Of a stretch of 64,000 bases of DNA, positions 1,782-40,772 are shown piece after piece (within the stretch, counting starts at the first letter, position 1; each line of letters opens with the position of its first letter). The notes under the pieces are model-generated. The model saw only the letters and a list, made by a program, of their open reading frames with translations. It searched no databases and had not been told where the DNA came from. A program made the position numbers and the translations under genes. The DNA is taken from contig BEIN01000002.1 in assembly GCA_002898375.1 (NCBI GenBank), forward strand, positions 64,347-128,346, in the 5' to 3' direction. This stretch comes from a bacterium HR37 (GTDB lineage: Bacteria > Desulfobacterota_D > UBA1144 > Nemesobacterales > CSP1-2).

Positions 1782-3149
1782 TCAGATTATCCCAATGTCC
1801 TCATAACCTTCTGCAAGGTTTTCAAAGCTTGGAACCCCAAGCTTTTCAAGAAAAGCAAGCCTTATAGTTCCCGTTGGTCCGTTTCTCTGTTTACCTATTA
1901 TGATCTCTGCGATTCCATCCTTTTGCTCCTGTTCCTCAGGCTTTGTTCTGTATGCATCTGCTCTGTGGATAAATATCACAACATCTGCATCCTGCTCAAG
2001 TGCCCCACTTTCCCTCAGATCAGCAAGCTGGGGAACCCTATTTGCTCTGGCCTCTGTCTGACGGCTGAGCTGGGATACAGCTATAACGGGGACCTGAAGC
2101 TCCTTTGCCAGAGCCTTAAGGGAAGCAGAGATTTCTGCAATCTCTCTTTCTCTGGTTTCGGCCCTTCCCGTACCTCGCATAAGCTGTAGGTAATCTACCA
2201 TGATAAGGTCAAGACCTTTCTCCTTCTTCTGTCTTCTTGCCTTGGCTCTTAGTTCTAAAACGTTAATTGCCGGTGTATCATCTATGTATATCTTTGCCCT
2301 GCTGAAGATATCTGCTGCTTTTATCAGTTTTTCGAGTTCCTCTGCTTTTAGGTATCCACTTCTTATATTTGAGAAGCTTACCTTTGAGACGATAGATAAC
2401 ATTCTAAGCATTAACTGTTCTTTTGTCATTTCCAGTGAAAATATTCCCACTGAAAGACCATGTTCAACGGCTGCGTGTATCGCAATGTTAAGACAAAAAG
2501 AGGTCTTACCCAAACCGGGTCTTGCTGCAACTATTATAAGGTCTGATGGTTGAAGCCCAGATGTCATGCGGTCTAGCTTTTCAAAACCTGTTGGAACCCC
2601 TGTTATTATCTCTTTGCGTGCGTGAAGTGTTTCTATAATCTCTAGTGCCTTTGCAGCCAGTTCTCTTGATTCATAAAAGCTTGGTTTTACCTTGTGCTGG
2701 GCTATATCAAGAATTGCGTGTTCAGCCCTATCAATGAAATCATCAACGTCGATACCTTCCTGTTGAGCGCGATTTGCAATATCCGTTGCCACAAGGACAA
2801 GTTTTCTTAAAATTGCCTTCTCTTTTACAAGCTTTGCATAGTATGCGATGTTTACGGTTGAGGGGACAACCTCGGTAAGATAGGTAAGGTAAGAACTGCC
2901 CCCTACCTCTTCTAGAAGTTTTCCCTTTGATTTTAGGTAGTCAAATAGGGTAAGTATGTCTATTGGCTTGTTGTTCCTATCGAGCTCAATCATTGCGTCA
3001 AATATCTTTCTGTGTGCTTCCTTATAGAAGTCCTCAGGAGTCAGTATTTCCAGAACCTGATTTATTAGACTTCCCTCTATAAGAATAGCTCCAAGAACGG
3101 CCTGTTCAGCCTCTATGTTTTGTGGAAGCGGTTTAGATAGGGTTACCAT
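1782..3149 (-). CDS. dnaB: Replicative DNA helicase
   Basis: PQNIEAEQAVLG N-terminus, Walker A ARPGLGKT, DYLQLM, LRESGALEQDAD, KQRNGP. Confidence 0.98.
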   Translation of the reverse strand: MVTLSKPLPQNIEAEQAVLGAILIEGSLINQVLEILTPEDFYKEAHRKIFDAMIELDRNNKPIDILTLFDYLKSKGKLLEEVGGSSYLTYLTEVVPSTVNIAYYAKLVKEKAILRKLVLVATDIANRAQQEGIDVDDFIDRAEHAILDIAQHKVKPSFYESRELAAKALEIIETLHARKEIITGVPTGFEKLDRMTSGLQPSDLIIVAARPGLGKTSFCLNIAIHAAVEHGLSVGIFSLEMTKEQLMLRMLSIVSKVSFSNIRSGYLKAEELEKLIKAADIFSRAKIYIDDTPAINVLELRAKARRQKKEKGLDLIMVDYLQLMRGTGRAETREREIAEISASLKALAKELQVPVIAVSQLSRQTEARANRVPQLADLRESGALEQDADVVIFIHRADAYRTKPEEQEQKDGIAEIIIGKQRNGPTGTIRLAFLEKLGVPSFENLAEGYEDIGII

Positions 3150-3164
3150 TTCAGTACATTTTAG

Positions 3165-3193
3165 ATTCTATACACATACTAACAAACCTTCAA
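3165..3193 (-). promoter_or_regulatory. sigma70-type promoter of dnaB
   Basis: TTGAAG (3193-3188), 17 bp, TAGAAT (3170-3165). Confidence 0.65.
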
Positions 3194-3194
3194 G

Positions 3195-3917
3195 TTACAC
3201 ACCAAGTAAAAGCCTATCGGCAAGCCATTTGTCAAGACCAGCTTTTACTATCTTTGCCTGTGCCTTTGGTATATCGTAGTTAACCCGGATAAACCGTATC
3301 GACTTTTCCACAGTATCGTATATCAGAAAAGAAGCCCGTGGATCCCTATCTCTTGGTTGCCCTATGCTACCCGGGTTAATAAGGTATTTTTTGTCTGGTT
3401 TTATTCTGAATTCGTTATGAAACAAGGACTGAACTTCTCCATTACAAAATACATATGAGATTCTTACATGGGTGTGTCCGAAGAAACATATACTTTGGTC
3501 CTGCATTAGCTTAAATTCCATAAGGGCATCGTAGGTTGAGAGGATGTAGAGGTCTGGGTCGGATATGGAGCCATGAACTGCTATAAATTCCCCATATTGC
3601 CTTGTATCGGGTAAATTCCACAGAAACTCTTTGTTTTCCTGGGTTAGGGTGTTTCGTGTCCAGAGTATTGCCTTTTTAGCAACTGGATTAAAGCCAATTG
3701 GCTCTTTTTTCCCACATGCAACAGCATCGTGGTTACCTGATATTGATTCTATACCCCGTTGTTTTAGCGTGTCTATACACTCGTTTGGATTCGCTCCGTA
3801 TCCTACTATGTCTCCAAGGCATATTACCTTGTCTGCACGGATTCTGTCTATCTCTTTAAGAGCACTGTTTAGAGCCTCAAGATTTCCGTGTATATCGGAG
3901 ATAATAGCGTATATCAT
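3195..3917 (-). CDS. Metallophosphoesterase (calcineurin-like, MJ0912-type)
   Basis: SDIHGN, GDIVGYG, GNHD, HGS, GHTH, INPGSIGQPRD. Confidence 0.9.
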   Translation of the reverse strand: MIYAIISDIHGNLEALNSALKEIDRIRADKVICLGDIVGYGANPNECIDTLKQRGIESISGNHDAVACGKKEPIGFNPVAKKAILWTRNTLTQENKEFLWNLPDTRQYGEFIAVHGSISDPDLYILSTYDALMEFKLMQDQSICFFGHTHVRISYVFCNGEVQSLFHNEFRIKPDKKYLINPGSIGQPRDRDPRASFLIYDTVEKSIRFIRVNYDIPKAQAKIVKAGLDKWLADRLLLGV

Positions 3918-3924
3918 GCTTTCC

Positions 3925-5256
3925 TTACGTGTGGTTTACAATTACCACACCTATATCCATTACATTCGTTCCGGTTGGCCCTGTTTTAATAAGGTCACCA
4001 AGTCTTTCAAAAAAAGTGTAAGAATCGTTTCTCGATAAGTGTTCTCTTGCACTTAAATTTATCTGTCTTGCCCTTATTCTGGTCTTCCCATCACAAATTG
4101 CTCCTGCAGCATCTGTTGGTCCGTCAATACCGTCTGTACCGCAGAAGAGACCAACAATGTTTCGGTTCATTATCTCCATAGAAAACGCAAGGGCCATCTC
4201 TGTGTTTCTGCCACCTCTACCTGAGCCTGTAACAGTAACTGTTGTTTCCCCCCCAAAGATAATACAGGCGGGTTTTTTTATTGGTATATCCAGCCTTTCT
4301 ACATCCATTGCTATTGCAGCTACTACCTTTGCCACCTCTCTTGCTTCACCGTGTATTTGTGATGAAAGGACTATGGGGTTATATCCAAACTCGCTTGCCT
4401 TTTTCTCAGCTGCTATAAGGGACTTAAAGTTGCTTCCTACAATCACAGTTTGAACCTTCTCCGGATCAAATTCCCCTTCTTTAAGGGTTTCGGGTATGTT
4501 ACCACGTCTTCCTTCCTCTAGGTGGACAACTACCTGAGGGGGAATTTTATGTTCTAGTCTAAGTGCTTCTATTACACGCCATGCATCTTCAAAGGTGGTT
4601 GAGTCTGGCACTGTTGGGCCAGAAGCTATTACATCGAGCTTATCACCAACAACGTCTGATAGCACAAGCGTTATTACCTGAGCCGGTAGGGCATGTTTAA
4701 GTAAACCTCCACCTTTGATCTGAGAGATGTGTTTTCTAACAGCGTTAAGCCCATGTGTGTCAACACCGGAAACAAGAAGCATCTCTGTTACTTTTCTTTT
4801 GTCTTCCAGTGATAGGCCAGGTGATGGCATTGCAAGAAGTGCACTTCCACCACCCGATATTAGGAAGATTACCAGGTCATCTTCCCGTGTAACCTGGAGA
4901 AGTTTCAATACCTCTTTTGCTGCTAAAAGTGATCTTTCATCGGGTATCGGATGACTCGAGAGGAGAAACCTAAGTCTTGAAAAGCTAAAAGGTGGATAGG
5001 AATTGGAGATCACAATCCCGTCGGTAATCCTTTCTCCAAGCACCTCCTCTATTGCCCTTGCCATAGAGGGTGCAGCCTTTCCAAAGGCTATAACGAAAAC
5101 GGATCTGTACCTTCTTAAGTTGTATTCTCTGTTTTCTATCCTTAAGGTATCTCCTTCCAGTAGAACGTGTTCCAGTACACACCTCTGTGGGTTTGCTGCT
5201 TCAAGGGCCTCTTTAAATATCTCAATTGCATGTTCTCTTGTGGTTTTGAAATCCAT
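3925..5256 (-). CDS. Glycerate 2-kinase (MOFRL family)
   Basis: FGKAA, LISGGGSAL, VRKHISQIKGG, SDVVGD, ASGPT, GGETTV, GRGGRN, GTDGIDG, TGPTGTNVMD. ATG 5256 lies 1 nt after the nuoE stop. Confidence 0.93.
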   Translation of the reverse strand: MDFKTTREHAIEIFKEALEAANPQRCVLEHVLLEGDTLRIENREYNLRRYRSVFVIAFGKAAPSMARAIEEVLGERITDGIVISNSYPPFSFSRLRFLLSSHPIPDERSLLAAKEVLKLLQVTREDDLVIFLISGGGSALLAMPSPGLSLEDKRKVTEMLLVSGVDTHGLNAVRKHISQIKGGGLLKHALPAQVITLVLSDVVGDKLDVIASGPTVPDSTTFEDAWRVIEALRLEHKIPPQVVVHLEEGRRGNIPETLKEGEFDPEKVQTVIVGSNFKSLIAAEKKASEFGYNPIVLSSQIHGEAREVAKVVAAIAMDVERLDIPIKKPACIIFGGETTVTVTGSGRGGRNTEMALAFSMEIMNRNIVGLFCGTDGIDGPTDAAGAICDGKTRIRARQINLSAREHLSRNDSYTFFERLGDLIKTGPTGTNVMDIGVVIVNHT

Positions 5257-5257
5257 G

Positions 5258-5731
5258 TTAATCTGCACGAAGTTTTTCTATAAGTTCGTCTATCTTTTTT
5301 CTTGTAAGGTTTTCGTAGAGTTCATCATCAACAAGCATTACTGGTGCGGTGCCGCAAGAGGCTAGGCATTCTGCCTCAAAGAAGGTGATCTTCCCATCAG
5401 GGGTTGTCTCTCCGGGTTTTATCCCGAGTTTTTCAGAAATGTAGTGTTCTACCTGTTGTGCCCCTCTAAGAGCACAGGGAAGTGTTCTACATAGCCATAT
5501 GATGTGTTTCCCAACGGGTTTTGTAAAAAACATAGTGTAGAAGGTTGCTACATTTTGCACATCTGCGGGGGGAATTGAGAGGAGTTCTGCTACCTCTTTC
5601 ATTGAATCAAGTGATAACCAGCCGTATTCACGTTGAACTTCGTGCAAAACAGGGATAAGTGCAGATTGCTTTGTTTCATATTTTGACATAATCTTTTTGA
5701 TCCTTTCCTTCAGGTCTTCTGAGAAAGCCAT
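5258..5731 (-). CDS. nuoE: NADH-quinone oxidoreductase subunit E ([2Fe-2S])
   Basis: SALIPVLHEVQREYGW, VATFYTMF, CRTLPC...ECLASCGTAP. Confidence 0.9.
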   Translation of the reverse strand: MAFSEDLKERIKKIMSKYETKQSALIPVLHEVQREYGWLSLDSMKEVAELLSIPPADVQNVATFYTMFFTKPVGKHIIWLCRTLPCALRGAQQVEHYISEKLGIKPGETTPDGKITFFEAECLASCGTAPVMLVDDELYENLTRKKIDELIEKLRAD

Positions 5732-5881: not shown

Positions 5882-7186
5882 GTGTTGGGGAATACGAGAA
5901 GAGTTGCAATAGTCTGTGGAATAAGAACACCCTTTATAAGAGCGGGTACCCTGTTTAGGGATTTATCATCTCTTGATCTGGGTAGGATTGTAACCGTTGA
6001 GCTTATAAACCGCTCTGAGGTGGATCCGGAAGATATAGATGAGGTTGTATTTGGATCTATGGTGTCTGTAGCAAGAACACCAAACCTTGCAAGGGATATT
6101 GCACTGGCTTCTGGTATTGGAGCCTCTACCCCCGCATACACCGTTACAATGTCTTGTATCTCCGGTATTCGTGCTTTTACCAGTGCTTTAGAAAGCATAG
6201 CCCTTGGTAACAGGGATACGGTATTGGTAGGTGGGGTGGAGTCGTTTTCTGAATGCGCTTCCTCCTTATCTTCCAAGATGTTTAATATAAAATTAAAAAA
6301 TGGTTCTTTTAAAACAGTGGGTTTGTTGCAGAGGGTAAATGCGTTTTTGGGTAATGGCTCTTACAAGCTGTCTTTTGGCCTTCCCTTTCTGTTAGATGCC
6401 TCAGCTGGCATTACCCTGGGAGAGTCAGCAGAGAAAATGGCTAGAAAGCACTCCATAACCCGCAGGGAGCAGGATGAGTTTGCTGCAAGAAGCCATAATC
6501 TTGCTTCTATATCTGCTAAGGACGGTAGGTTTGGGGAAGAGATTGTTTCTTTGCTGTTACCCCCTGATTTTTCAACTCTGGTGTGTAGTGATAATGGAGT
6601 ATGTAAGGATATATCAGTTGAGGCACTTTCTAAAGAAGAACCGATTTTTGATAGAAGGTATGGTACAGTTACCTTTGGAAACTCTTCTTACCTTAGTGAT
6701 GGTGCTTCGGCTGTTCTTCTTATGGCTGAGGAAAAAGCAAGGGCTTTGGGTTATAACCCTCTGGGATACGTTAGAGCATATGCATATGCCTCTGCCTCTG
6801 TTTGTACAGATGAGAAGCTTCTTATGGGACCGGCTTATTCAACCCCGATAGCCTTAGAGCTTGCAGAACTTACATTAAGGGAAATTGACTTAGTGGAGAT
6901 ACAGGAGACATTTGCTGCACAGGTTCTTTCCAATGCAAGAGCCTTTGCTTCAAAGAAGTTTGCCAAGGAGGATCTTAATAGAAGCAATCCTGTTGGGGAA
7001 ATCGAATTGGAAAGGCTAAATGTTCTTGGTGGCTCCATTGCCATAGGTCATCCATTTGGAGCCAGCGGTCTTGGTGTTATTGTAACGCTCCTTAATGAGC
7101 TAAAACGCAGGGACAGAAATTTTGGTCTAGTATGTATGTCTGCATCCGGGGGGTTAGGTGTATCGATTATACTGGAAAGGGAATAA
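5882..7186 (+). CDS. fadI: FadI-type 3-ketoacyl-CoA thiolase homolog with substituted catalytic motifs
   Basis: RTPF, GGVES, LNVLGGSIAIGHPF and the FadI-type FASKKFAKEDL insertion. HEAF appears as QETF and CAAGG as SASGG. GTG start. Confidence 0.85.
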   Translation: MLGNTRRVAIVCGIRTPFIRAGTLFRDLSSLDLGRIVTVELINRSEVDPEDIDEVVFGSMVSVARTPNLARDIALASGIGASTPAYTVTMSCISGIRAFTSALESIALGNRDTVLVGGVESFSECASSLSSKMFNIKLKNGSFKTVGLLQRVNAFLGNGSYKLSFGLPFLLDASAGITLGESAEKMARKHSITRREQDEFAARSHNLASISAKDGRFGEEIVSLLLPPDFSTLVCSDNGVCKDISVEALSKEEPIFDRRYGTVTFGNSSYLSDGASAVLLMAEEKARALGYNPLGYVRAYAYASASVCTDEKLLMGPAYSTPIALELAELTLREIDLVEIQETFAAQVLSNARAFASKKFAKEDLNRSNPVGEIELERLNVLGGSIAIGHPFGASGLGVIVTLLNELKRRDRNFGLVCMSASGGLGVSIILERE

Positions 7187-7204: not shown

Positions 7205-9304
7205 ATGCTTTCCTTTAACGTAGATAAAAGAGGAATAGGGATTTTAAAGATTGGAAAGGGGGATAAAAGCAAGAAGGGGCTTTCATCCAATTTGTTTGTT
7301 GAGCTTGGAAATTTGATTGGAGAAATTGAAGGAGGAAATTATATAAGAGCTGTTATCCTTACGGGGGAAAAAGACGAAGAATTTATCCCGGATATAGACC
7401 TTGAAGAGTTTTTAAAGTTTTCCTCAGAAGATGATGGAAGGTTGTTTAGCCTGCGTGCTCAGGATGTGTTAAATAGAATTGAAAGGTGTAGGGTTCCTTT
7501 TCTTGCAGCTATAAATGGTCTGTGTACAGGAGTGGGGTTTGAGATTGCTCTTGCCTGTAGTTACAAGATAGCCTCAGATAACCCTCGGGTTGCTTTTGGA
7601 TTCCCTGCTGTAAATCTTGGTTTGATTCCCTTTGCAGGTGGAACACAAAGGCTACCCAGGTTGATAGGTATCTCTAAAGCACTTGATGTTTTTCTTAGGG
7701 GGCGTCTTATAGGTACAGCAGAGGCTCTTAGATTGGGTTTGGTAGATGAGGTTGTACCTGAGGAGATTCTTTTAAGTATTGCCCTAGAAAGGGCTCTTAT
7801 GGTTTCTGGTGGTAAGAGGTTAAAATCAAAGCGATTCGGATTTACCAGAGGACTTTTCGAAAAAAACCCTCTCGTTCGCAAGATTTTGTTTAGCAGGGCA
7901 AAAAAGAATCTTGTAGATAAAAGATATGTTAGAAGCCTGGCTCCTCTTATGATTCTTGAGTCTGTAGAGGTGGGAATGGGTGCAAGCTTTAACAGGGGAT
8001 TACATGTGGAGTCTGTGTATTTTGGAGAGCTGGTTGTAAGTGATGTATCACGACAACTGTTAAAGTTCTTTTTATCTGTAGATGATGTTAAGAGGGAGAT
8101 TATCAAACAATCTGGCCATATAGAACCGGTAAAGAAGATCGTGGTAGTTGGTTCAGACCCTTTAGGCTCACAGTTTGCTATTGTTGCTGCTGAGGCAGGT
8201 ATATGTGTAAGACTCTATGACACGGATTATAAAAAGATTGGGGAGGGATTGAGAAATTGCTACAGGTACTTTAAGGGGAAACTTAAATCGGGAGCTATTA
8301 CAGAATTCGATATGAGAAGAAAGTTAAATCTTATAAGTTATACGTGTGATTACACCGGGTTCCGTAATGCTGATCTGGTTGTAGAAACCCTCTTTAAAGA
8401 CTTAGAGAAAAGGCAGGAAATCCTTAAGGGGATTGAGCCGGTTGCTGGCAAGGATACGGTTTTAATGTTGGTTACCTTTTCTACCCCTTTATCTATTATA
8501 TCCTCCGTTCTGTCCAGCTGGCAGGGAAGGGTTGTAGGTGTGCGACCTTTTCTTCCGATTTCCAATACAGGGGTTGTGGAGCTGATCTACCAGGAGGATT
8601 CTCCAAATAGTGCTATTGGTACCGTGGTTGATTTTTTAAGACGCACTGGGATACTTCCGGTATTTGTAAGGGATAAAGAGGGTTTCTTTGCAACACGAGT
8701 TCTTCTTGCCTATCTCTTCGAAGCACTTGAGCTGTTAGGTGAAGGTGCTATGGTTGAGCAGGTTGATGGGGCTATGATAGAGTTTGGATTTCCAAAAGGT
8801 CCATTTGCCTTAATCGATGAGATTGGACTGGAGTTTGTAAGTAAGGTAGGAAAGGAGCTTTGTGAGTCTCTGGGAGAGAGGTTTAAGATGCCACTTCTCT
8901 TGGATAAGATGGCAAGGGAGAAAAATCTAGAGTGGGGAGGGTTCTACAATGCTGAGGGGAAAGTTAACAAGTCAGTTTACAATCTGATTGAAGAAAAGAT
9001 AGTAAACGATAGACTTTTAAAAAGTGACTTTAAGGAAAGGCTCTGTCTTCGAATGCTCAGTGAAGCTATACTTTGCCTTGAAGAGGGCATAATAAGAAAT
9101 CCCAGGGATGGTGATGTGGTTTCTGTTTTAGGCCTTGGTTTTCCTGTTTTCCTTGGTGGTCCATTTCGGTATGCTGATTCTTTGGGATTGGGTATTATTT
9201 TAGAAAAACTGGAAGCTCTCTCCCATAGATTTGGTTCTCGTTTTGCTCCTTCTGGATTGCTAAAGGAGCTTGTACTTGAAAGAAAAAGGTTTTACGATGC
9301 TTGA
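7205..9304 (+). CDS. fadJ: FadJ-type fatty-acid oxidation alpha subunit homolog (crotonase + HAD domains), degenerate motifs
   Basis: AINGLCTGVGFEIALAC, LGLIPFAGGTQRLPRLIG, GFPKGPFALIDEIGL, DGDVVSVLGLGFPVFLGGPF. Confidence 0.85.
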   Translation: MLSFNVDKRGIGILKIGKGDKSKKGLSSNLFVELGNLIGEIEGGNYIRAVILTGEKDEEFIPDIDLEEFLKFSSEDDGRLFSLRAQDVLNRIERCRVPFLAAINGLCTGVGFEIALACSYKIASDNPRVAFGFPAVNLGLIPFAGGTQRLPRLIGISKALDVFLRGRLIGTAEALRLGLVDEVVPEEILLSIALERALMVSGGKRLKSKRFGFTRGLFEKNPLVRKILFSRAKKNLVDKRYVRSLAPLMILESVEVGMGASFNRGLHVESVYFGELVVSDVSRQLLKFFLSVDDVKREIIKQSGHIEPVKKIVVVGSDPLGSQFAIVAAEAGICVRLYDTDYKKIGEGLRNCYRYFKGKLKSGAITEFDMRRKLNLISYTCDYTGFRNADLVVETLFKDLEKRQEILKGIEPVAGKDTVLMLVTFSTPLSIISSVLSSWQGRVVGVRPFLPISNTGVVELIYQEDSPNSAIGTVVDFLRRTGILPVFVRDKEGFFATRVLLAYLFEALELLGEGAMVEQVDGAMIEFGFPKGPFALIDEIGLEFVSKVGKELCESLGERFKMPLLLDKMAREKNLEWGGFYNAEGKVNKSVYNLIEEKIVNDRLLKSDFKERLCLRMLSEAILCLEEGIIRNPRDGDVVSVLGLGFPVFLGGPFRYADSLGLGIILEKLEALSHRFGSRFAPSGLLKELVLERKRFYDA

Positions 9305-9322: not shown

Positions 9323-10156
9323 ATGAAAGTACAAAAGCATGATAGGTACCATTTGGTGGTATTAATATTTTCGTTTACAGGTCTTTTACTCTCTCTTTAT
9401 TTAACTTACCTTTACTACAGCAAAGCACAGGCTGCATTTTGTAGTGCTGGTTCTGGATGTGATATTGTACGAGAAAGTCCCTATTCGCAAATTGCAGGTA
9501 TTCCTGTTCCGCTTTTAGGTGTTTTCGGGTATTTCTTAATAGGTGTTTTATCTCTTGTATCCATAAGCAGTAGGGGCAAATGGTTGCTTCTGTATGCACT
9601 TTCACTGGCTGGGTTTGTTTTCTCCGCATATCTAACCTATATTGAGCTTTTTGTTATACATGCCCTGTGTTTCTACTGTGTTGTTTCAGCTATTTTGATC
9701 TCAGCTGTATTTATCATACTGTTGGTTAAAAAACCAACTCTGGCTCCCCAGGAATCCCTTTTAAAGGTTCTCTTGTTAAGTATAGTGATTGCAGGTTCTG
9801 TTCTTATGGGGTCTTTTTTTCTACACCCCAGAGAGGGGGTTTCCTCAAACACAGATAGCTCCTCCCGCGTTGGACTTGCAAAACACCTCTCAAGTATAGG
9901 AGCGGTTATGTACGGATCATATAAGTGTCCACACTGTTTGGCTCAGAAGTATCTTTTTGGAGAGGAGGCCTTTAAGTACATAAAATACGTTGAGTGCCAT
10001 CCAGAGGGGAAAAACGCAAACCCTTCTCTGTGCCTTGAGAAGGGAATAACTGCATATCCTACCTGGGAGATAAACGGAAAATTCTATGTCGGGGCAATGT
10101 CTCTTAAAGAGTTGGCTAGAATCTCAGGGTACTCTTTAGAGAACACACAACCCTAG
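9323..10156 (+). CDS. VKOR-family disulfide formation protein fused to a thioredoxin-like domain
   Basis: Loop cysteines FCSAGSGC, TM CFYC, C-terminal YGSYKCPHC...YVEC...C...YPTW. Confidence 0.88.
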   Translation: MKVQKHDRYHLVVLIFSFTGLLLSLYLTYLYYSKAQAAFCSAGSGCDIVRESPYSQIAGIPVPLLGVFGYFLIGVLSLVSISSRGKWLLLYALSLAGFVFSAYLTYIELFVIHALCFYCVVSAILISAVFIILLVKKPTLAPQESLLKVLLLSIVIAGSVLMGSFFLHPREGVSSNTDSSSRVGLAKHLSSIGAVMYGSYKCPHCLAQKYLFGEEAFKYIKYVECHPEGKNANPSLCLEKGITAYPTWEINGKFYVGAMSLKELARISGYSLENTQP

Positions 10157-13200: not shown

Positions 13201-13746
13201 ATGGCTATAAGGATTAATATATCAAGATACGGAAGGGTAGTGGGTACAAGAGAGGAAGGAAAGAAGGTACAAAGGGATATAGTTCACAGTATAGAGAAGT
13301 TACCTGAGGGAGGTACTCTTATTGTAAATCTAAGGGGGGTAAAGGTACTTAGTGGTTCTTTTGCAGATGAGGCTGTTGTGATTCCCTATCAGAGGCTGGT
13401 TAGCGGTGAGTACGGTGAAAAAAATATGCTTATTGAGTGTAGTAACAGAGAAGTCCTTGAGGATCTTGAAGCAAAGCTTGAGAGAAGAAAGCTTGCTATG
13501 CTTGGCTTGGGAAAGGATTCACAGTGGTATGTTATAGGAAATCTAAATAAATACCTCCAAGAGACTTTGGAGGAAATTGTAAAGAGTAAAAAGGTAACTG
13601 CAGGGGAGCTTGCTCAAAAGCTTGGAATAAGCGTTACCAACTGCAACAACAGGCTTTCTAAGCTCTACAGATTAGGCCTGATAAAAAGAGAGAGGGTTAA
13701 CAATGTAACTGGGGGGATCCTTTATTTCTACAGGTCCATTATTTAA
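13201..13746 (+). CDS. STAS-like (DUF4325-type) domain plus C-terminal winged helix-turn-helix
   Basis: GTREEG...VNLRGVKVLSGSFADE, then TAGELAQKLGISVTNCNNRLSKLYRLGLIKR. AAGGAGG SD. Confidence 0.7.
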   Translation: MAIRINISRYGRVVGTREEGKKVQRDIVHSIEKLPEGGTLIVNLRGVKVLSGSFADEAVVIPYQRLVSGEYGEKNMLIECSNREVLEDLEAKLERRKLAMLGLGKDSQWYVIGNLNKYLQETLEEIVKSKKVTAGELAQKLGISVTNCNNRLSKLYRLGLIKRERVNNVTGGILYFYRSII

Positions 13747-13848: not shown

Positions 13849-14286
13849 ATGGAAAAGATAAAGGGTACTGTGGAAAAGGCAAATGCAAGGGGCATTAAAC
13901 TCGATGGCAAATGGTATAACTATTCAAAGTTTATGGAAGAAGATATACCTAAGGTGAGTGAAGGTGATAGGGTTGAAGTGGATATTAGCGGTGATTGGAT
14001 AAAGGGAGTAAAGATTCTCTCACATCGTCCCTCTGAACTTGTAGAGGATAGGGAAAGTTACTTTACGGAGAAAAGAAAAAGGGATTTAGAACGTCAGATT
14101 GTAGTTACAAGGCTTGCATGCCTTAACACCGCTACCGAGATTCTAAAATCACACGCACGACCTATTAAGGCCAAAAGCCTGTTTAGAGTTGCTGAAGAGC
14201 TTGAGAACTGGGTCTGGCGTGGTCTAAAGAGGGAAATAGAAAGGGATATTGAAGAAGATAGGATAGAGTTCGAAGGAGAGGAATAA
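13849..14286 (+). CDS. Hypothetical protein; putative OB-fold-like ssDNA-binding protein with acidic tail
   Basis: Beta-rich N-terminus with aromatic residues (KWYNY, DWI), helical RQIVVTRLACLNTA, C-terminal EEDRIEFEGEE. Confidence 0.7.
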   Translation: MEKIKGTVEKANARGIKLDGKWYNYSKFMEEDIPKVSEGDRVEVDISGDWIKGVKILSHRPSELVEDRESYFTEKRKRDLERQIVVTRLACLNTATEILKSHARPIKAKSLFRVAEELENWVWRGLKREIERDIEEDRIEFEGEE

Positions 14287-35492: not shown

Positions 35493-35996
35493 TTACTGAG
35501 AGGCTTCATTTGGTGAGATAACAACAAGTACCACCCCACTCTCTACTGTATCCCCTTCTTTTACCCGTACCTCTCTTATCTTTCCCTCCATAGGTGATTT
35601 GAGCTCGCTTTCCATTTTCATGGCCTCTATTACTATTACTCCCTCCCCTTCTTCCACCTCTTCGTCTTCCCTCTTTAGTATCTTTACCACACGGCTTGGC
35701 ATGGGAGCCTTTATCTCTTGAGTGCCCGAAGCACCCCCCTTTGCTTTTGCCCTTTCCCTCTCAGATATGGCTTCAAATTCAAATAGGTCTCCGTCTATAA
35801 ATACCTGAATGTTTCTACCTTTCCTCAGTATGCCAGCGCCAATGGATTTGCCCTCAACTATTATTGAGTAAAAGTTCCCATCGATCTTTCTAAACTCTAG
35901 TGGAATTCTTTTGCTCTCGATTTCTATCTCTGTTTGGTCCCCCTCTTCCATGGAGACCCTGTATATTTGGTCTCTGAACTTAAATGTCAACATCAT
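35493..35996 (-). CDS. Biotin carboxyl carrier subunit
   Basis: APMPS...EAMKME biotinyl motif with an N-terminal extension. Confidence 0.93.
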   Translation of the reverse strand: MMLTFKFRDQIYRVSMEEGDQTEIEIESKRIPLEFRKIDGNFYSIIVEGKSIGAGILRKGRNIQVFIDGDLFEFEAISERERAKAKGGASGTQEIKAPMPSRVVKILKREDEEVEEGEGVIVIEAMKMESELKSPMEGKIREVRVKEGDTVESGVVLVVISPNEASQ

Positions 35997-37498
35997 ATTA
36001 GCTGATTCCTCATTACTGCAATTTTTCTACCAAAGAGTTTCCAGTAGGATACAGGCCCCTGTTCTGTTTTTCCCTCCTCCTTCTTTGTTGAGTCCTTCAT
36101 TGCAACAGCCGCAGCAACAAGGGCAGGCTCTAGGTTCTGGGTATCAACAGATGGAGAGAGAAGCTCTGGGTGCCTGTCTATAAAACCGGTATCAAATTCC
36201 CCCTTTATGAATTCCTCGTTTTCCATAACCCTTCTTAGGAATCCAATGTTGGTTTTAACCCCAAGCACTATGTATTCTCGTAAAGCATTTCTCATCTTCT
36301 TTATAGCTTCTTCTCTTGTGTCTGCCCAGGCAATGAGTTTTGATAACATCGGGTCGTAAAACGGCGTTATTTCACACCCGCTGTATATTGATGAGTCATC
36401 TCTTATGCCGGGTCCACCAGGGGTACGTACGTATTCCAATTTGCCTGGGGAGGGAAGAAAGTTTCTCTCAGGGTCTTCAGCATAAACCCTGCACTCTATT
36501 GCGTGTCCTCTAATTGATATGTCTTCTTGGGTAAGTGTTAGCTTTTCCCCTGCTGCTATTCTTATCATCCATTTTACTATGTCAAACCCTGTTATCATCT
36601 CCGTTACCGGATGCTCAACCTGAATGCGGGTGTTCATCTCAAGGAAATAGAAGTTTTCGTTCTGATCCAGGATAAACTCAACTGTTCCGGCTCCCCTATA
36701 AGATACCGCTTTTGCAACCCTTACTGCAACTTCTCCCATTCTTTTCCTTGTGCGTGGGCTTATAGCAGGTGAGGGAGCCTCTTCTATAACCTTTTGATGC
36801 CTTCTCTGTATAGAACACTCTCTTTCAAAAAGATGCAGGATGTTGCCATAGGCATCCCCTATTATCTGTATCTCCACATGACGCGGGCGTTCTATAAACT
36901 TCTCTATGTATACGGAGTCATCGCCAAAGGCGGAACGGGCCTCACTTCTTGCCATTCGTAGTGAGCTCTTAAAATCCTCTTCCCGTCTTACAAGCCTCAT
37001 CCCCTTACCACCTCCACCTGCTGATGCCTTTATCATCACGGGATAGCCTATCTTCTTTGCTATTACTTCAGCTTCAACATCACTTACCGCACCGTCTGAA
37101 CCTGGAACGAGTGGAACCCTTGCTTCCTGGGCAATACGTCTTGCCGTTATCTTATCTCCCATAAGCCGGATTGCTTCCGATGATGGCCCAATAAAAACTA
37201 TCCCTTCTCTTTCACATGCTTCTGCAAAAAGATGGTTCTCGGAAAGAAAACCATAACCTGGGTGTATGGCATCTGCCCCTGAGCGCTTTGCTACACTTAT
37301 TATCTTCTCTATGGAAAGATAGCTCTCTGTTGGAGGAGGGGGACCGATATTATAGGCTTCATCTGCCATTGCAACGTGGAGAGAGGTTCTATCTGCATCG
37401 GAGTAGACAGCAACCGTTTTTATCCCTAATTCCCTACAGGCCCTTATTATCCTAATGGCTATTTCCCCTCTGTTTGCAATAAGGATCTTATCAAACAT
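35993..37498 (-). CDS. accC: Biotin carboxylase subunit
   Basis: ANRGEIA, HPGYGFLSEN, GGGGKGM, ERECSIQRRHQK, EMNTRIQVEH. Confidence 0.96.
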   Translation of the reverse strand: MFDKILIANRGEIAIRIIRACRELGIKTVAVYSDADRTSLHVAMADEAYNIGPPPPTESYLSIEKIISVAKRSGADAIHPGYGFLSENHLFAEACEREGIVFIGPSSEAIRLMGDKITARRIAQEARVPLVPGSDGAVSDVEAEVIAKKIGYPVMIKASAGGGGKGMRLVRREEDFKSSLRMARSEARSAFGDDSVYIEKFIERPRHVEIQIIGDAYGNILHLFERECSIQRRHQKVIEEAPSPAISPRTRKRMGEVAVRVAKAVSYRGAGTVEFILDQNENFYFLEMNTRIQVEHPVTEMITGFDIVKWMIRIAAGEKLTLTQEDISIRGHAIECRVYAEDPERNFLPSPGKLEYVRTPGGPGIRDDSSIYSGCEITPFYDPMLSKLIAWADTREEAIKKMRNALREYIVLGVKTNIGFLRRVMENEEFIKGEFDTGFIDRHPELLSPSVDTQNLEPALVAAAVAMKDSTKKEEGKTEQGPVSYWKLFGRKIAVMRNQLI

Positions 37499-37513: not shown

Positions 37514-39058
37514 CTATAGGGGTATGTTACCGTGCTTTTTTGGTGGAAGCGTTTGCCTCTTGCCCTCTAACATCTCAAAGGCCGCTATTACCCTTGGTCT
37601 TGTATCTTCCGGTCTTATTATCTCGTCTATGTAGCCAAGCTCTGCTGCTCTATAAGGGTTTGCAAACGTGTTCCTGTATTCAGTGGCAAGCCTTGCCCTT
37701 TCAGCCTCTGGGTCTTCAGCCTGTTCTATTTCCTTTCTGGCTATTATATTTACCGCTCCTTCGGGTCCCATCACTGCTATTTCTGCCGTTGGATAGGCAA
37801 AGTTTATATCACCCCTTATGTGCTTTGAGGACATAACATCGTATGCTCCCCCGTAGGCCTTTCTTGTTATCACAGTTACCCTAGGTACAGTGGCTTCACA
37901 GTATGCATACAGCAGTTTTGCTCCGTGTTTTATTATCCCATCCCATTCCTGGGCGGTACCCGGTAAGAAACCGGGTACATCAACGAAGGTGAGGATTGGG
38001 ATATTAAAGCAATCACAAAACCTTACAAATCTAGCAGCCTTTACAGAGGCATTTATATCAAGACAGCCTGCAAGAACGTTGGGTTGGTTCCCTACGATTC
38101 CTACCACCCGACCATTTAGCCTTGCAAAGCCAATAACTATGTTTTTGGCAAAGTGTTCCTGAACTTCAAAGAAGTATCCATCATCTACCACCCTGGTTAT
38201 TACATCTTTGATATCATAGGGTTTATTGGGGTTTTCTGGAACAATCTCTCTGAGTTTCATGTCCCTGCGATCTACAGGATCGCTACACTCTGCTCTTGGG
38301 GGATCTTCCATGTTGTTTGAAGGAAGAAAGCTAAGCAACTCTCTTATAAGAAGTATGCATTCCCTGTCGTTCTCTGTGGCAAAGTGGGCTACCCCACTTC
38401 TTGAGTTATGAACCATTGCACCACCCAGCTCTTCCCTGTTTACCTCTTCATGCGTTACAGCCTTTATAACATCAGGGCCGGTAATGAACATGTAGCTTGT
38501 GTTTTTTACCATTATGATGAAATCCGTTATGGCCGGTGAGTAAACTGCTCCACCTGCACATGGGCCCATTATAGCAGATATTTGTGGTATAACACCCGAA
38601 CATAACACATTCCTTAAAAATATCTCTCCATAACCCCCTAGGCTCTCTACTCCTTCCTGTATTCTTGCTCCACCTGAGTCGTTAAGCCCAATAATGGGGG
38701 CTCCAACCTGCATTGCCAGATCCATTATCTTACAGATTTTTCTTGCGTGTGTCATACCAAGTGATCCACCAAAAACGGTAAAGTCCTGTGCAAACACAAA
38801 TACCTGACGACCGTCGATTTTTCCGTAACCGGTTACAACACCATCTCCTAGAAACTTTTTCTTATCCATATTAAAGTCGGTGCACCGATGTACTGCAAAC
38901 TTATCGAGCTCAACAAATGTACCCTTGTCCAGAAGGAGGTTTATTCTCTCGCGCGCGGTAAGCTTTCCCATTTCGTGCTGTTTTTGAATCTTATCTAAAC
39001 CACCGCCTGATTCCGCTTCCTTCTCTTTTTGCTCAAGAAGCGATATTTTTTCCTTCAT
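37514..39058 (-). CDS. pccB: Acyl-CoA carboxylase carboxyltransferase (PccB-type)
   Basis: [50 protein letters not shown]. Confidence 0.96.
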
Positions 39059-39177: not shown

Positions 39178-39786
39178 CTAATCAAAAGACCCTAAACCTA
39201 TGCTTTTCCATATTCTCTCAACCTGTTTTCTCGTTTCTTCAAGGTTTCCTGAGTTATCAATTACATAGGTTGCGTGCTTTACTTTTTCCTCAACTGGCAT
39301 CTGTGACCTGATTCTAGAAATTGCTTCTTCTTTTGATAGTCCTCTTTCTTCTACCAGTCTCTTTATCTGCGTTTCCTCATCTGAGGTAACAACAATTAGC
39401 TCATCTATTATATCGCTAAGCCCTCCTTTTTCCACTATTAGAGCAGCTTCAACAACTACGACTTTTTGGTTCTCTCTCCTGTATTTCTCTATTAGCTCTC
39501 TTATCTTTCCTATTATCCTTGGGTGGGTAATCCGGTTTAGTTCTTCTCTCTTCCCTTCGTCTTCAAAAACTATTTTCCCTAACTTCTTTCTGTCTATTGT
39601 TCCATCGTCTTTTAATATATCTTTTCCGAATTTTTCAATAATCTCTTTCCAGGCAGGCTCTCCAGGCTGCACTATCATTCTGGCAATCTGGTCTGCATCT
39701 ATTACTTTTGCTCCAAGTTCCTCAAACATCTTTGCTACAACGCTTTTACCACACCCTATATTTCCTGTAAGTCCTATAACCTTCAT
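39178..39786 (-). CDS. coaE: Dephospho-CoA kinase
   Basis: GLTGNIGCGKS, IDAD, ITHP, SQMP, NSG. Confidence 0.96.
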   Translation of the reverse strand: MKVIGLTGNIGCGKSVVAKMFEELGAKVIDADQIARMIVQPGEPAWKEIIEKFGKDILKDDGTIDRKKLGKIVFEDEGKREELNRITHPRIIGKIRELIEKYRRENQKVVVVEAALIVEKGGLSDIIDELIVVTSDEETQIKRLVEERGLSKEEAISRIRSQMPVEEKVKHATYVIDNSGNLEETRKQVERIWKSIGLGSFD

Positions 39787-39905
39787 GAGGGTATTTTATT
39801 TTACAAAAGTTTCAAGGGAAATTGCAACTGACTCCTTAAAGGGTAGTTTTGTTATGTTATATGTGTATAATATTTTCCAGATTTTGGTTCTTAAAGGAGG
39901 TTAAA

Positions 39906-40772
39906 ATGCCATTTAAAGTGGATGAGGTAAAAAAAGTGGGGGTTATTGGAGCAGGAACGATGGGTTCAGGTATTGCTCAGGTTGTGTCCGCTAGTGGAAG
40001 AGAGGTTATCTTGGTAGATATTTCTGACTCTGCGCTTAAGCGTGGAATTGATACCATACAGAAGAGTCTATCCAGATTTGTAAAAAAGGGAGAAATAAGT
40101 GAACAGGAGAGCAACTCTATTTTATCCCGTATAAGGACAACAACGTCTTTTGAGGATTTAAAGGACGTTGACCTTATAATAGAGGCCGTTTTTGAAAACA
40201 TGGAGGTAAAGAAAGAAACGTTTAAGAAACTCGATGCCTGCACACGTCCGGATGTTATTTTTGCAACAAATACCTCTTCTCTACCTATTGTGGAACTGGC
40301 TGTAAGTACAGGGAGACCAGATAAGGTGGTTGGAATGCATTTTTTTAACCCTGCCCCTATAATGAAGCTTGTGGAGGTAGTAAAGAGCCTTGTAACATCT
40401 GAGGAGACAGTTCAGTTTGCATATGATTTTGCCAAGGCTTTGGGAAAAGACCCGGTTAAAACAAAAGACGTTCCAGGGTTCATAGTAAACCGTATACTTA
40501 TGCCTATGCTTAATGAGGCCGTTTTTGCTCTTGAAGAAGGGGTTGGAACACCTGAAGATATCGACAAGGCTATGAAGCTTGGGACAAATCAGCCAATAGG
40601 TCCTCTTGCACTTATAGACCTTATAGGGCTTGATGTAACCCTTGATGTACTTGATGTACTCTATCGCGAGTTTGGAGACCCGAAATTCCGTGCTGCCAAC
40701 CTTCTTCGTCAGATGGTTCGTGCTGGTTGGCTGGGAAGGAAAACCGGGCGGGGCTTTTATTCCTATCAATAG
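39906..40772 (+). CDS. hbd: 3-hydroxybutyryl-CoA dehydrogenase
   Basis: GAGTMG, ATNTSS, GMHFFNP, PGFIVNR, GRKTGRGFY. AAGGAGG SD before ATG 39906. Confidence 0.95.
   Translation: MPFKVDEVKKVGVIGAGTMGSGIAQVVSASGREVILVDISDSALKRGIDTIQKSLSRFVKKGEISEQESNSILSRIRTTTSFEDLKDVDLIIEAVFENMEVKKETFKKLDACTRPDVIFATNTSSLPIVELAVSTGRPDKVVGMHFFNPAPIMKLVEVVKSLVTSEETVQFAYDFAKALGKDPVKTKDVPGFIVNRILMPMLNEAVFALEEGVGTPEDIDKAMKLGTNQPIGPLALIDLIGLDVTLDVLDVLYREFGDPKFRAANLLRQMVRAGWLGRKTGRGFYSYQ

Follow-up and report, generated by a model that had tools for sequence, protein, structure and literature searches.

A FadI/FadJ-like gene pair of bacterium HR37 has lost key residues of all three beta-oxidation active sites and probably encodes a selectively maintained pseudoenzyme complex

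The closest described relatives of the genes studied here are the trifunctional enzymes (TFEs) of beta-oxidation, whose alpha subunit (FadJ/TFE-alpha) consists of a crotonase domain, a Rossmann domain of 3-hydroxyacyl-CoA dehydrogenase (HAD), and two C-terminal helical HAD domains, ~700 amino acids in all. In enoyl-CoA hydratase (ECH), the crotonase enzyme, Glu144 serves to activate water and Glu164 to protonate C2; the oxyanion hole consists of N(Ala98) of loop-2 and N(Gly141) of helix 3, the loop-2 carbonyls bind the CoA adenine, and the Gly97-Ala98 peptide must rotate (PMC13126182). The equivalent catalytic residues of the Mycobacterium tuberculosis TFE are Glu119, Glu141, His462, Ser441, and Cys-beta92 (PMC11301753). 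Bacterial pseudoenzymes are little documented, and our literature searches brought up neither an account of a TFE, FadJ, or crotonase that has become a dead pseudoenzyme nor anything specific about beta-oxidation in Dadabacteria. Here, we analyze a fadI-like and fadJ-like gene pair located in a 64,000-nucleotide stretch of the genome of bacterium HR37 (contig BEIN01000002.1, positions 64,347 to 128,346; this whole stretch is referred to below as the window). The best sequence and fold match of the pair is the anaerobic Escherichia coli FadJ/FadI complex (anEcTFE; Protein Data Bank [PDB] entries 6ysv, 6ysw, 8bnr, and 8bnu), which also shares its gene order (beta, then alpha) and its domain architecture. 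The fold has been kept, catalytic residues are missing, and the genes are under purifying selection; on these grounds, the pair is probably a pseudoenzyme alpha-beta complex kept for a non-catalytic role, and neither a pseudogene nor a working beta-oxidation enzyme.

The first-pass annotation of the fadJ-like open reading frame (ORF) had described, from an alignment made by eye, a FadJ homolog with numerous substitutions at catalytic positions. An HMMER alignment to E. coli FadJ (8bnu_C; residues 5 to 695, 395 bits, E=6e-117), which is free of gaps, reproduced its register. Pfam detected the ECH_1, 3HCDH_N, and 3HCDH domains; the complete TFE-alpha architecture is thus present. The best NCBIfam model for the protein is also FadJ. 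However, its scores were far below the equivalog cut-offs of both NF008363 (561.1 versus 869) and TIGR02440 (500.7 versus 968), and its 3HCDH_N domain scored 90.6 bits compared with 231 bits for the canonical HAD encoded in the same window. The structural motifs GGTQRLPRLIG, GPFALID, and GPFRYAD, described earlier as persisting, are all present in the translation. An AlphaFold2 model based on an alignment of 49 homologs had a predicted local distance difference test (pLDDT) score of 90.2 and a predicted template modeling (pTM) score of 0.89, and it superposed with template modeling (TM) scores of 0.92 on both E. coli TFE-alpha (6ysv_A, 32% identity) and the alpha subunit of the human trifunctional protein, which supports conservation of the TFE-alpha fold.

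We re-derived the codon coordinates of the FadJ residues, which agree with the earlier positions 7607, 8150, and 8543. In the crotonase domain, the loop-2 residues A-G-A-D are replaced by P62-D63-I64-D65 (7388-7399; FIAGADI aligns with FIPDIDL) and the helix-3 Gly of the oxyanion hole by Val110 (7532-7534; CLGGGLE aligns with CTGVGFE), so that the oxyanion-hole motifs read PDID and G-V110-G. The first hydratase Glu is kept as Glu113 (7541-7543), whereas the second is Ala135 (7607-7609; LPEV aligns with FPAV). From this single Glu it had been suggested that the domain could still act as an isomerase. Monofunctional delta3,delta2-enoyl-CoA isomerases do have a crotonase fold with one hydratase Glu, as in the window protein, but the catalytic Glu of the known isomerases is located at the position of either ECH Glu164 or ECH Gly172 (PMC13126182). 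Both positions are unoccupied by Glu in the window protein, which has Ala135 and Phe143 (7631-7633) there and retains only the equivalent of ECH Glu144 (Glu113), and the suggestion therefore finds no support.

The dehydrogenase half is similarly altered. The NAD-binding GxGxxG motif, GGGLMG in E. coli FadJ, reads G316-S-D318-P-L-G321 (8150-8167); NTSS reads VTFS (8471-8482), with F425 in place of the first Ser; and the catalytic His is replaced by Arg447 (8543-8545; GLHFF aligns with GVRPF), whereas the Glu of the His-Glu dyad is kept as Glu459 (8579-8581). Arg447 probably preserves a buried pairing with this invariant Glu. Each of the substitutions listed earlier (AGAD to PDID, Glu to Ala135 with E113 kept, GSDPLG, VTFS, and R447) was confirmed in the HMMER alignment; the exception concerns GFFATR in place of GFxVNR, which had been counted as a further loss. 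Of the 121 best homolog clusters, 85 have Thr in the column of Thr497 (8693-8695), the Asn column of GFxVNR, among them clusters with every other catalytic residue, and so does a sister-genus ortholog (GFYTTRI) that passes the NCBI FadJ equivalog cut-off. Judged by these homologs, Thr497 is normal for this FadJ subfamily and is not a loss. A monofunctional HAD encoded in the same window has GAGTMG, NTSS, GMHFF, and GFIVNR, and the pattern seen in FadJ is therefore not a compositional artifact.

The fadI-like gene ends 18 nucleotides upstream of the fadJ-like gene. Its product was aligned over its full length with E. coli FadI (8bnu_A; 343 bits, E=2e-101) and has the thiolase fold, but scored 458.7 bits against the NCBIfam FadI cut-off of 560 (NF006516). 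The nucleophile Cys92 (6155-6157) and His390 (7049-7051) are kept, HEAF is changed to QETF (Q341, 6902-6904), and Ser420 (7139-7141) stands in place of the acid/base Cys in a gap-free alignment, with another Cys, C418, located two residues upstream. In comparison with E. coli FadJ/FadI, the window pair lacks the second hydratase Glu, AGAD, GGG, GxGxxG, the leading Ser of NTSS, the dehydrogenase His, and the acid/base Cys of the thiolase. Another 18 nucleotides separate the fadJ-like stop codon from the next gene, encoding a VKOR protein, which is preceded by a GAGGGG Shine-Dalgarno sequence. The 18-nucleotide spacings and the Shine-Dalgarno-like GAGGGG motifs suggest a single fadI-fadJ-VKOR transcript; in a consensus scan, neither 18-nucleotide junction contained a terminator-like site, and the counts of promoter and terminator sites over the region were at background level.

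Variants of the M. tuberculosis TFE at equivalent positions are available in the PDB (alpha-E141A, alpha-H462A, and beta-C92A; entries 7o1i, 7o1m, 7o1g, and 7o1j, with the alpha variants identified by entry titles). These are engineered point mutants of an active enzyme, whereas A135 and R447 of the window protein are natural replacements at the alpha-E141A and alpha-H462A positions, which are joined by several others and by a lost NAD motif and have persisted in evolution. In contrast to beta-C92A, the window thiolase keeps its nucleophile and has lost the acid/base Cys instead. Sequence evidence, so far as it reaches, supports the first-pass view of a conserved fold and lost catalysis: the pLDDT score is 90, the TM score is 0.92, and the catalytic Glu and His and the NAD-binding glycines named in the TFE literature are absent.

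To place the pair in an evolutionary context, we inspected 40 related genomes, using our own labels for families (f1, the window's family, to f8) and genera. The nearest DnaB relatives (63 to 78% identity) are mostly uncultured metagenome-assembled genomes (MAGs) that were submitted under the names Deltaproteobacteria, Thermodesulfobacteriota, or Candidatus Dadabacteria bacterium. Only two FadJ clusters are close to the window protein (98% and 91% identity), and both have the same degenerate motifs; the next matches share at most 47% identity. Full-length FadJ homologs were found in most genera of f1 and in families f2 and f4, whereas none was found in families f3 and f5 to f8 or in some genomes of f1. 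FadI and FadJ always co-occurred, both being kept in every lineage that has either. The layout, in which dnaB, phosphoesterase, glycerate kinase, and nuoE genes diverge from fadI, fadJ, and the VKOR-thioredoxin gene, recurs in three families of the order, and the fadIJ loci retrieved are therefore positional orthologs. Their identity to the window is 64 to 81% for the neighboring genes, 37 to 60% for FadI, and 33 to 47% for FadJ.

The state of the active sites differed largely among these orthologs. In genera g2 and g4 of the window's family, FadJ is fully canonical (GGG, E, PEV, GAGFMG, NTSS, and HFF), as is FadI (C, HEAF, GHP, and C), and both proteins pass the NCBIfam cut-offs (913.9 versus 869 for FadJ; 615.6 versus 560 for FadI). 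The sister-genus orthologs at loci L032 and L035 (genomes G009 and G003) share the chromosomal position and neighbors of the window pair, with 44 to 47% identity in FadJ and 57 to 59% in FadI, and their hosts are the nearest relatives of the window on a tree of DnaB and glycerate kinase; unlike the window pair, they are missing none of the catalytic and cofactor motifs, and their branches are 3 to 6 times shorter. Partial decay was observed in genus g8, whose FadJ reads PDI, GAAQIG, and NVSA and keeps the His. More extensive changes were seen in family f2, where FadJ has NGI, DQI, or NQI, GVNDLG or GEETHG, NSFA, and Arg or Lys in place of the His, and where the acid/base Cys of FadI is Ala or Pro in three genera; in one f2 genome (G022), the FadI nucleophile Cys has been lost as well, and yet the pair is retained. 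In family f4, FadJ has DDL, and the His is replaced by Asn. Among the 121 best FadJ clusters, 53 keep both Glu residues, GxGxxG, and the His, 43 lack all three features, and 25 are intermediate. Glu113 is conserved in 117 of them and Glu459 in all 121, whereas the His is replaced by Arg in 51; the changes of His to Arg and Ser to Phe are recurrent, being seen in both the window lineage and family f2.

The DnaB and glycerate kinase tree recovered family f1 with a support of 99 and placed the window among intact genera, in the order (window,(g4,g2)), then (g3,g9), then g8, on an ordinary branch of 0.14. The branch of the window lineage is, however, 0.79 to 0.91 for FadJ and 0.55 for FadI, compared with ~0.2 to 0.3 and 0.1 to 0.2, respectively, in the sister genera. 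The minimum number of changes on this tree was two for the His, two for the second Glu, three for GxGxxG, and three for the FadI acid/base Cys, and the window lineage always accounted for one of them. At least two to three losses were thus independent, with different lineages having lost different sets of residues. These comparisons also show that the window pair descends vertically from a canonical anaerobic-type TFE (alpha2beta2). More tentatively, it is possible that a whole three-activity complex, with both subunits affected, has been turned into a dead but still-selected alpha-beta assembly several times independently within one order.

Selection was assessed with an ortholog of 91% identity that is present, together with its neighbors, on metagenome contigs L047 and L048, and ratios of nonsynonymous to synonymous substitution rates (dN/dS) were calculated against L047. 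For fadJ, the ratio was 0.29 (64 nonsynonymous versus 62 synonymous differences; p=1.2e-10 in a binomial test of neutrality), for fadI 0.21 (p=4e-8), and for the VKOR gene 0.20, whereas dnaB, glycerate kinase, nuoE, recJ, and phosphoesterase genes had values between 0.00 and 0.04. Within fadJ, the values for the ECH domain (0.19), the N-terminal HAD domain (0.25), and the C-terminal HAD domains (0.27) were all significant. Since the ratio is well below 1 in both genes, we conclude that the dead fadI and fadJ genes are maintained by purifying selection, which is weaker than on the housekeeping neighbors. Pairs of genomes of the same genus elsewhere gave 0.13 to 0.17 for intact fadJ and 0.17 to 0.20 for the partly degenerate fadJ of g8. 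In genus g20, where FadJ is without the second Glu, GxGxxG, and the His and FadI without the acid/base Cys, the values were 0.10 for fadJ and 0.08 for fadI at a dS of ~0.9. In the sister species, FadJ D318 is Asn (GSNPLG), and His390 of FadI (L047:4666-5979, contig Ga0101943_1000181; the same sequence is found in L048) is Tyr, so that GHP reads GYP; the other motifs match those of the window. Thiolase-site decay is thus still under way in this genus, and dead-site residues are free to change.

In the pseudoenzyme complex that we propose, the hydratase step would be lost with the proton-donating Glu and the altered loop-2/helix-3 oxyanion-hole motifs, the dehydrogenase step with the glycine motif for NAD binding, the His of the dyad, and the first of the two NTSS serines, and the thiolase step with the acid/base Cys and, in the sister species, the catalytic His as well. 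The two proteins would still assemble as a TFE-like alpha-beta complex; both genes are kept wherever either is, even with one entirely dead. What selection then maintains would be a non-catalytic property of this complex, for example the binding of acyl-CoA or lipids, an association with the membrane, or scaffolding, whereas the beta-oxidation-type chemistry of the organism would be carried out by separate monofunctional enzymes. The genome assembly (2.42 Mb, 97.6% complete) encodes one canonical HAD, four monofunctional crotonases, one canonical thiolase, and two acyl-CoA dehydrogenases apart from the pair.

Several observations weigh against this interpretation. The donors of the oxyanion hole are backbone NH groups, and its functional loss is deduced from side-chain changes. 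FadI, which keeps Cys92 and, in the window genome, His390, may still be capable of acyl-enzyme chemistry. The window genus has the weakest constraint measured, its fadJ ratio of 0.29 exceeding that of intact or long-dead relatives two- to threefold; the fadJ linker (residues 206 to 305) is near neutral (0.73, not significant), and the weak constraint could in part reflect selection against misfolding of an expressed relic. Finally, the FadJ gene tree grouped all fast-evolving degenerate lineages with high support and rejected the monophyly of f1 (approximately unbiased test, p=1.4e-4), which could mean shared ancestry of the decay or transfer of a cassette. Because synteny is conserved and the window proteins are most similar to the intact orthologs, we attribute this grouping to long-branch (or convergent) attraction, and shared ancestry of the decay was not accepted because the neighbor-gene tree places the window among intact genera. 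In addition, PEI and GAGEIG persist in the sister of the g8 branch (P0023 and P0024) and the His in g8 itself, so that the ancestor of the apparent degenerate clade must have been intact at these sites.

Among the alternatives, the best surviving is a neofunctionalized enzyme with other chemistry, for example acyl transfer through Cys92-His390 of FadI without C-C cleavage or a reaction of Glu113 in the crotonase pocket, which we consider unlikely. Cys92 and His390 are both kept in the window genome, and C418 lies just before the lost acid/base Cys, but the sister species has Tyr for His390 and Asn for D318, C418 is not conserved in other lineages without the acid/base Cys, and G022 kept the pair after losing the nucleophile itself. 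The conservation of Glu113 would fit a reaction in the crotonase pocket, but both known isomerase Glu positions are empty, and its near-universal retention even in the most degenerate relatives suggests a structural role. Purifying selection on all three folded domains would fit a new enzyme as well. In the large f2-type clade, conservation extends to the replacement motifs (Arg in 95%); however, replacements differ by lineage, so that there is no common new active site, and a comparison of per-column conservation between intact and dead groups revealed no clear new active site besides the conserved Arg.

Less probable still is a relic heading for deletion, in which catalysis has become redundant with the monofunctional enzymes and the residual constraint acts only against a toxic or misfolded product. 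The dN/dS values of the window genus (0.29 and 0.21, against 0.00 to 0.07 for housekeeping neighbors) are the highest measured and the linker is near neutral, but the ratio is significantly below 1 in each folded domain, and the equally dead g20 pairs show values of ~0.1 at a dS of ~0.9. The branch is 3 to 6 times longer than in the sister genera, and more catalytic residues are being lost within the genus; nevertheless, ORFs of 2.1 kb and 1.3 kb have stayed open along this branch of ~0.8 to 0.9 substitutions per site and in two diverged species. The absence of the pair from families f3 and f5 to f8 and from some genomes of f1 is in line with ongoing deletion, whereas the retention of both partners by every lineage with either is not. 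A still-working trifunctional beta-oxidation enzyme that tolerates unusual residues is very improbable, since, despite its full-length architecture, the kept first Glu, dyad Glu, and thiolase Cys and His, and the conserved CoA-fold motifs, key catalytic or cofactor residues have been replaced in all three active sites together, two of these residues at positions represented by the M. tuberculosis variants alpha-E141A and alpha-H462A, both proteins fall below equivalog cut-offs that sister-genus orthologs pass, and dead-site residues vary between close relatives.

Table 1. Features of the fadIJ-like locus and of the control gene (window positions).
Feature	Positions	Strand	Evidence
FadI-like (TFE-beta) thiolase homolog, 434 aa	5882..7186	+	HMMER to E. 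coli FadI; Thiolase_N and Thiolase_C
FadJ-like (TFE-alpha) homolog	7205..9304	+	uninterrupted 699-aa frame; Pfam, HMMER, and model
Crotonase (ECH) domain, residues 23-197	7271..7795	+	Pfam ECH_1; HMMER alignment
Rossmann (3HCDH_N) domain, residues 311-490	8135..8674	+	Pfam; HMMER alignment
C-terminal helical HAD domains, residues 493-699	8681..9301	+	Pfam 3HCDH (493-575); sequence
VKOR-thioredoxin fusion gene	9323..10156	+	Pfam VKOR; sequence
Canonical monofunctional 3-hydroxyacyl-CoA dehydrogenase	39849..40772	+	all canonical motifs; internal control

The VKOR domain downstream of fadJ is fused to a CPHC thioredoxin-like domain, and the spacing of the genes makes cotranscription with the fadJ-like gene probable. 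This gene keeps its syntenic downstream position at 12 of 15 related loci and occurs in 39 of 41 genomes from the order, with or without fadIJ, and a functional link between fadIJ and VKOR was rejected for this reason. It looks like the general disulfide-oxidation system of the order, adjoining fadJ only by inherited gene order. Remnants of fadIJ beside the VKOR gene were sought in three genomes without the pair (G005, G015, and G004); none was found, and the gene context differs.

Upstream, the block of nuoE, glycerate kinase (DUF4147/MOFRL), phosphoesterase, and dnaB genes (1782-5731, minus strand), which has no other nuo genes nearby, is divergent from fadIJ and syntenic over three families of the order, with 64 to 81% identity (loci L032 to L046). 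Genomes of genus g8 have, besides the syntenic ortholog, a second glycerate kinase paralog that is 45 to 47% identical to that of the window (G011:C143, G007:C6, and G014:C9; loci L147 to L149). Further downstream on the plus strand are a winged-helix gene (13201-13746; HTH_24 and MarR_2 matches) and a gene for a 145-amino-acid, acidic-tailed protein without a Pfam match (13849-14286). The canonical HAD gene adjoins coaE (39178-39786) and a set of genes for a biotin-dependent acyl-CoA carboxylase on the minus strand, which encode the carboxyltransferase (37514-39058), the biotin carboxylase (35993-37498), and the biotinyl carrier protein (35493-35996).

Homologs of the fadJ-like gene, including degenerate ones, are publicly named [quoted passage not shown] or "NAD-binding domain-containing protein," and the depositor names attached to the nearest FadJ-like proteins are the same as those of the DnaB relatives. 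Because degenerate homologs carry enzyme names, metabolic reconstructions of Dadabacteria-type MAGs that count this gene as beta-oxidation capacity would be wrong for many lineages. The recurrent changes of His to Arg and of Ser to Phe beside an invariant dyad Glu illustrate how an unused active site may be repaired structurally. That both subunits of a multienzyme complex probably lack catalysis and are yet under selection points to a moonlighting role of TFE. If this interpretation is true, a further role of a non-enzymatic kind, for example in binding acyl-CoA or lipids, in organizing membranes, or as a scaffold, already belonged to the ancestral TFE and has outlived its enzymology, and the canonical, half-dead, and fully dead orthologs present at one locus in related genomes provide a natural series for finding this role.

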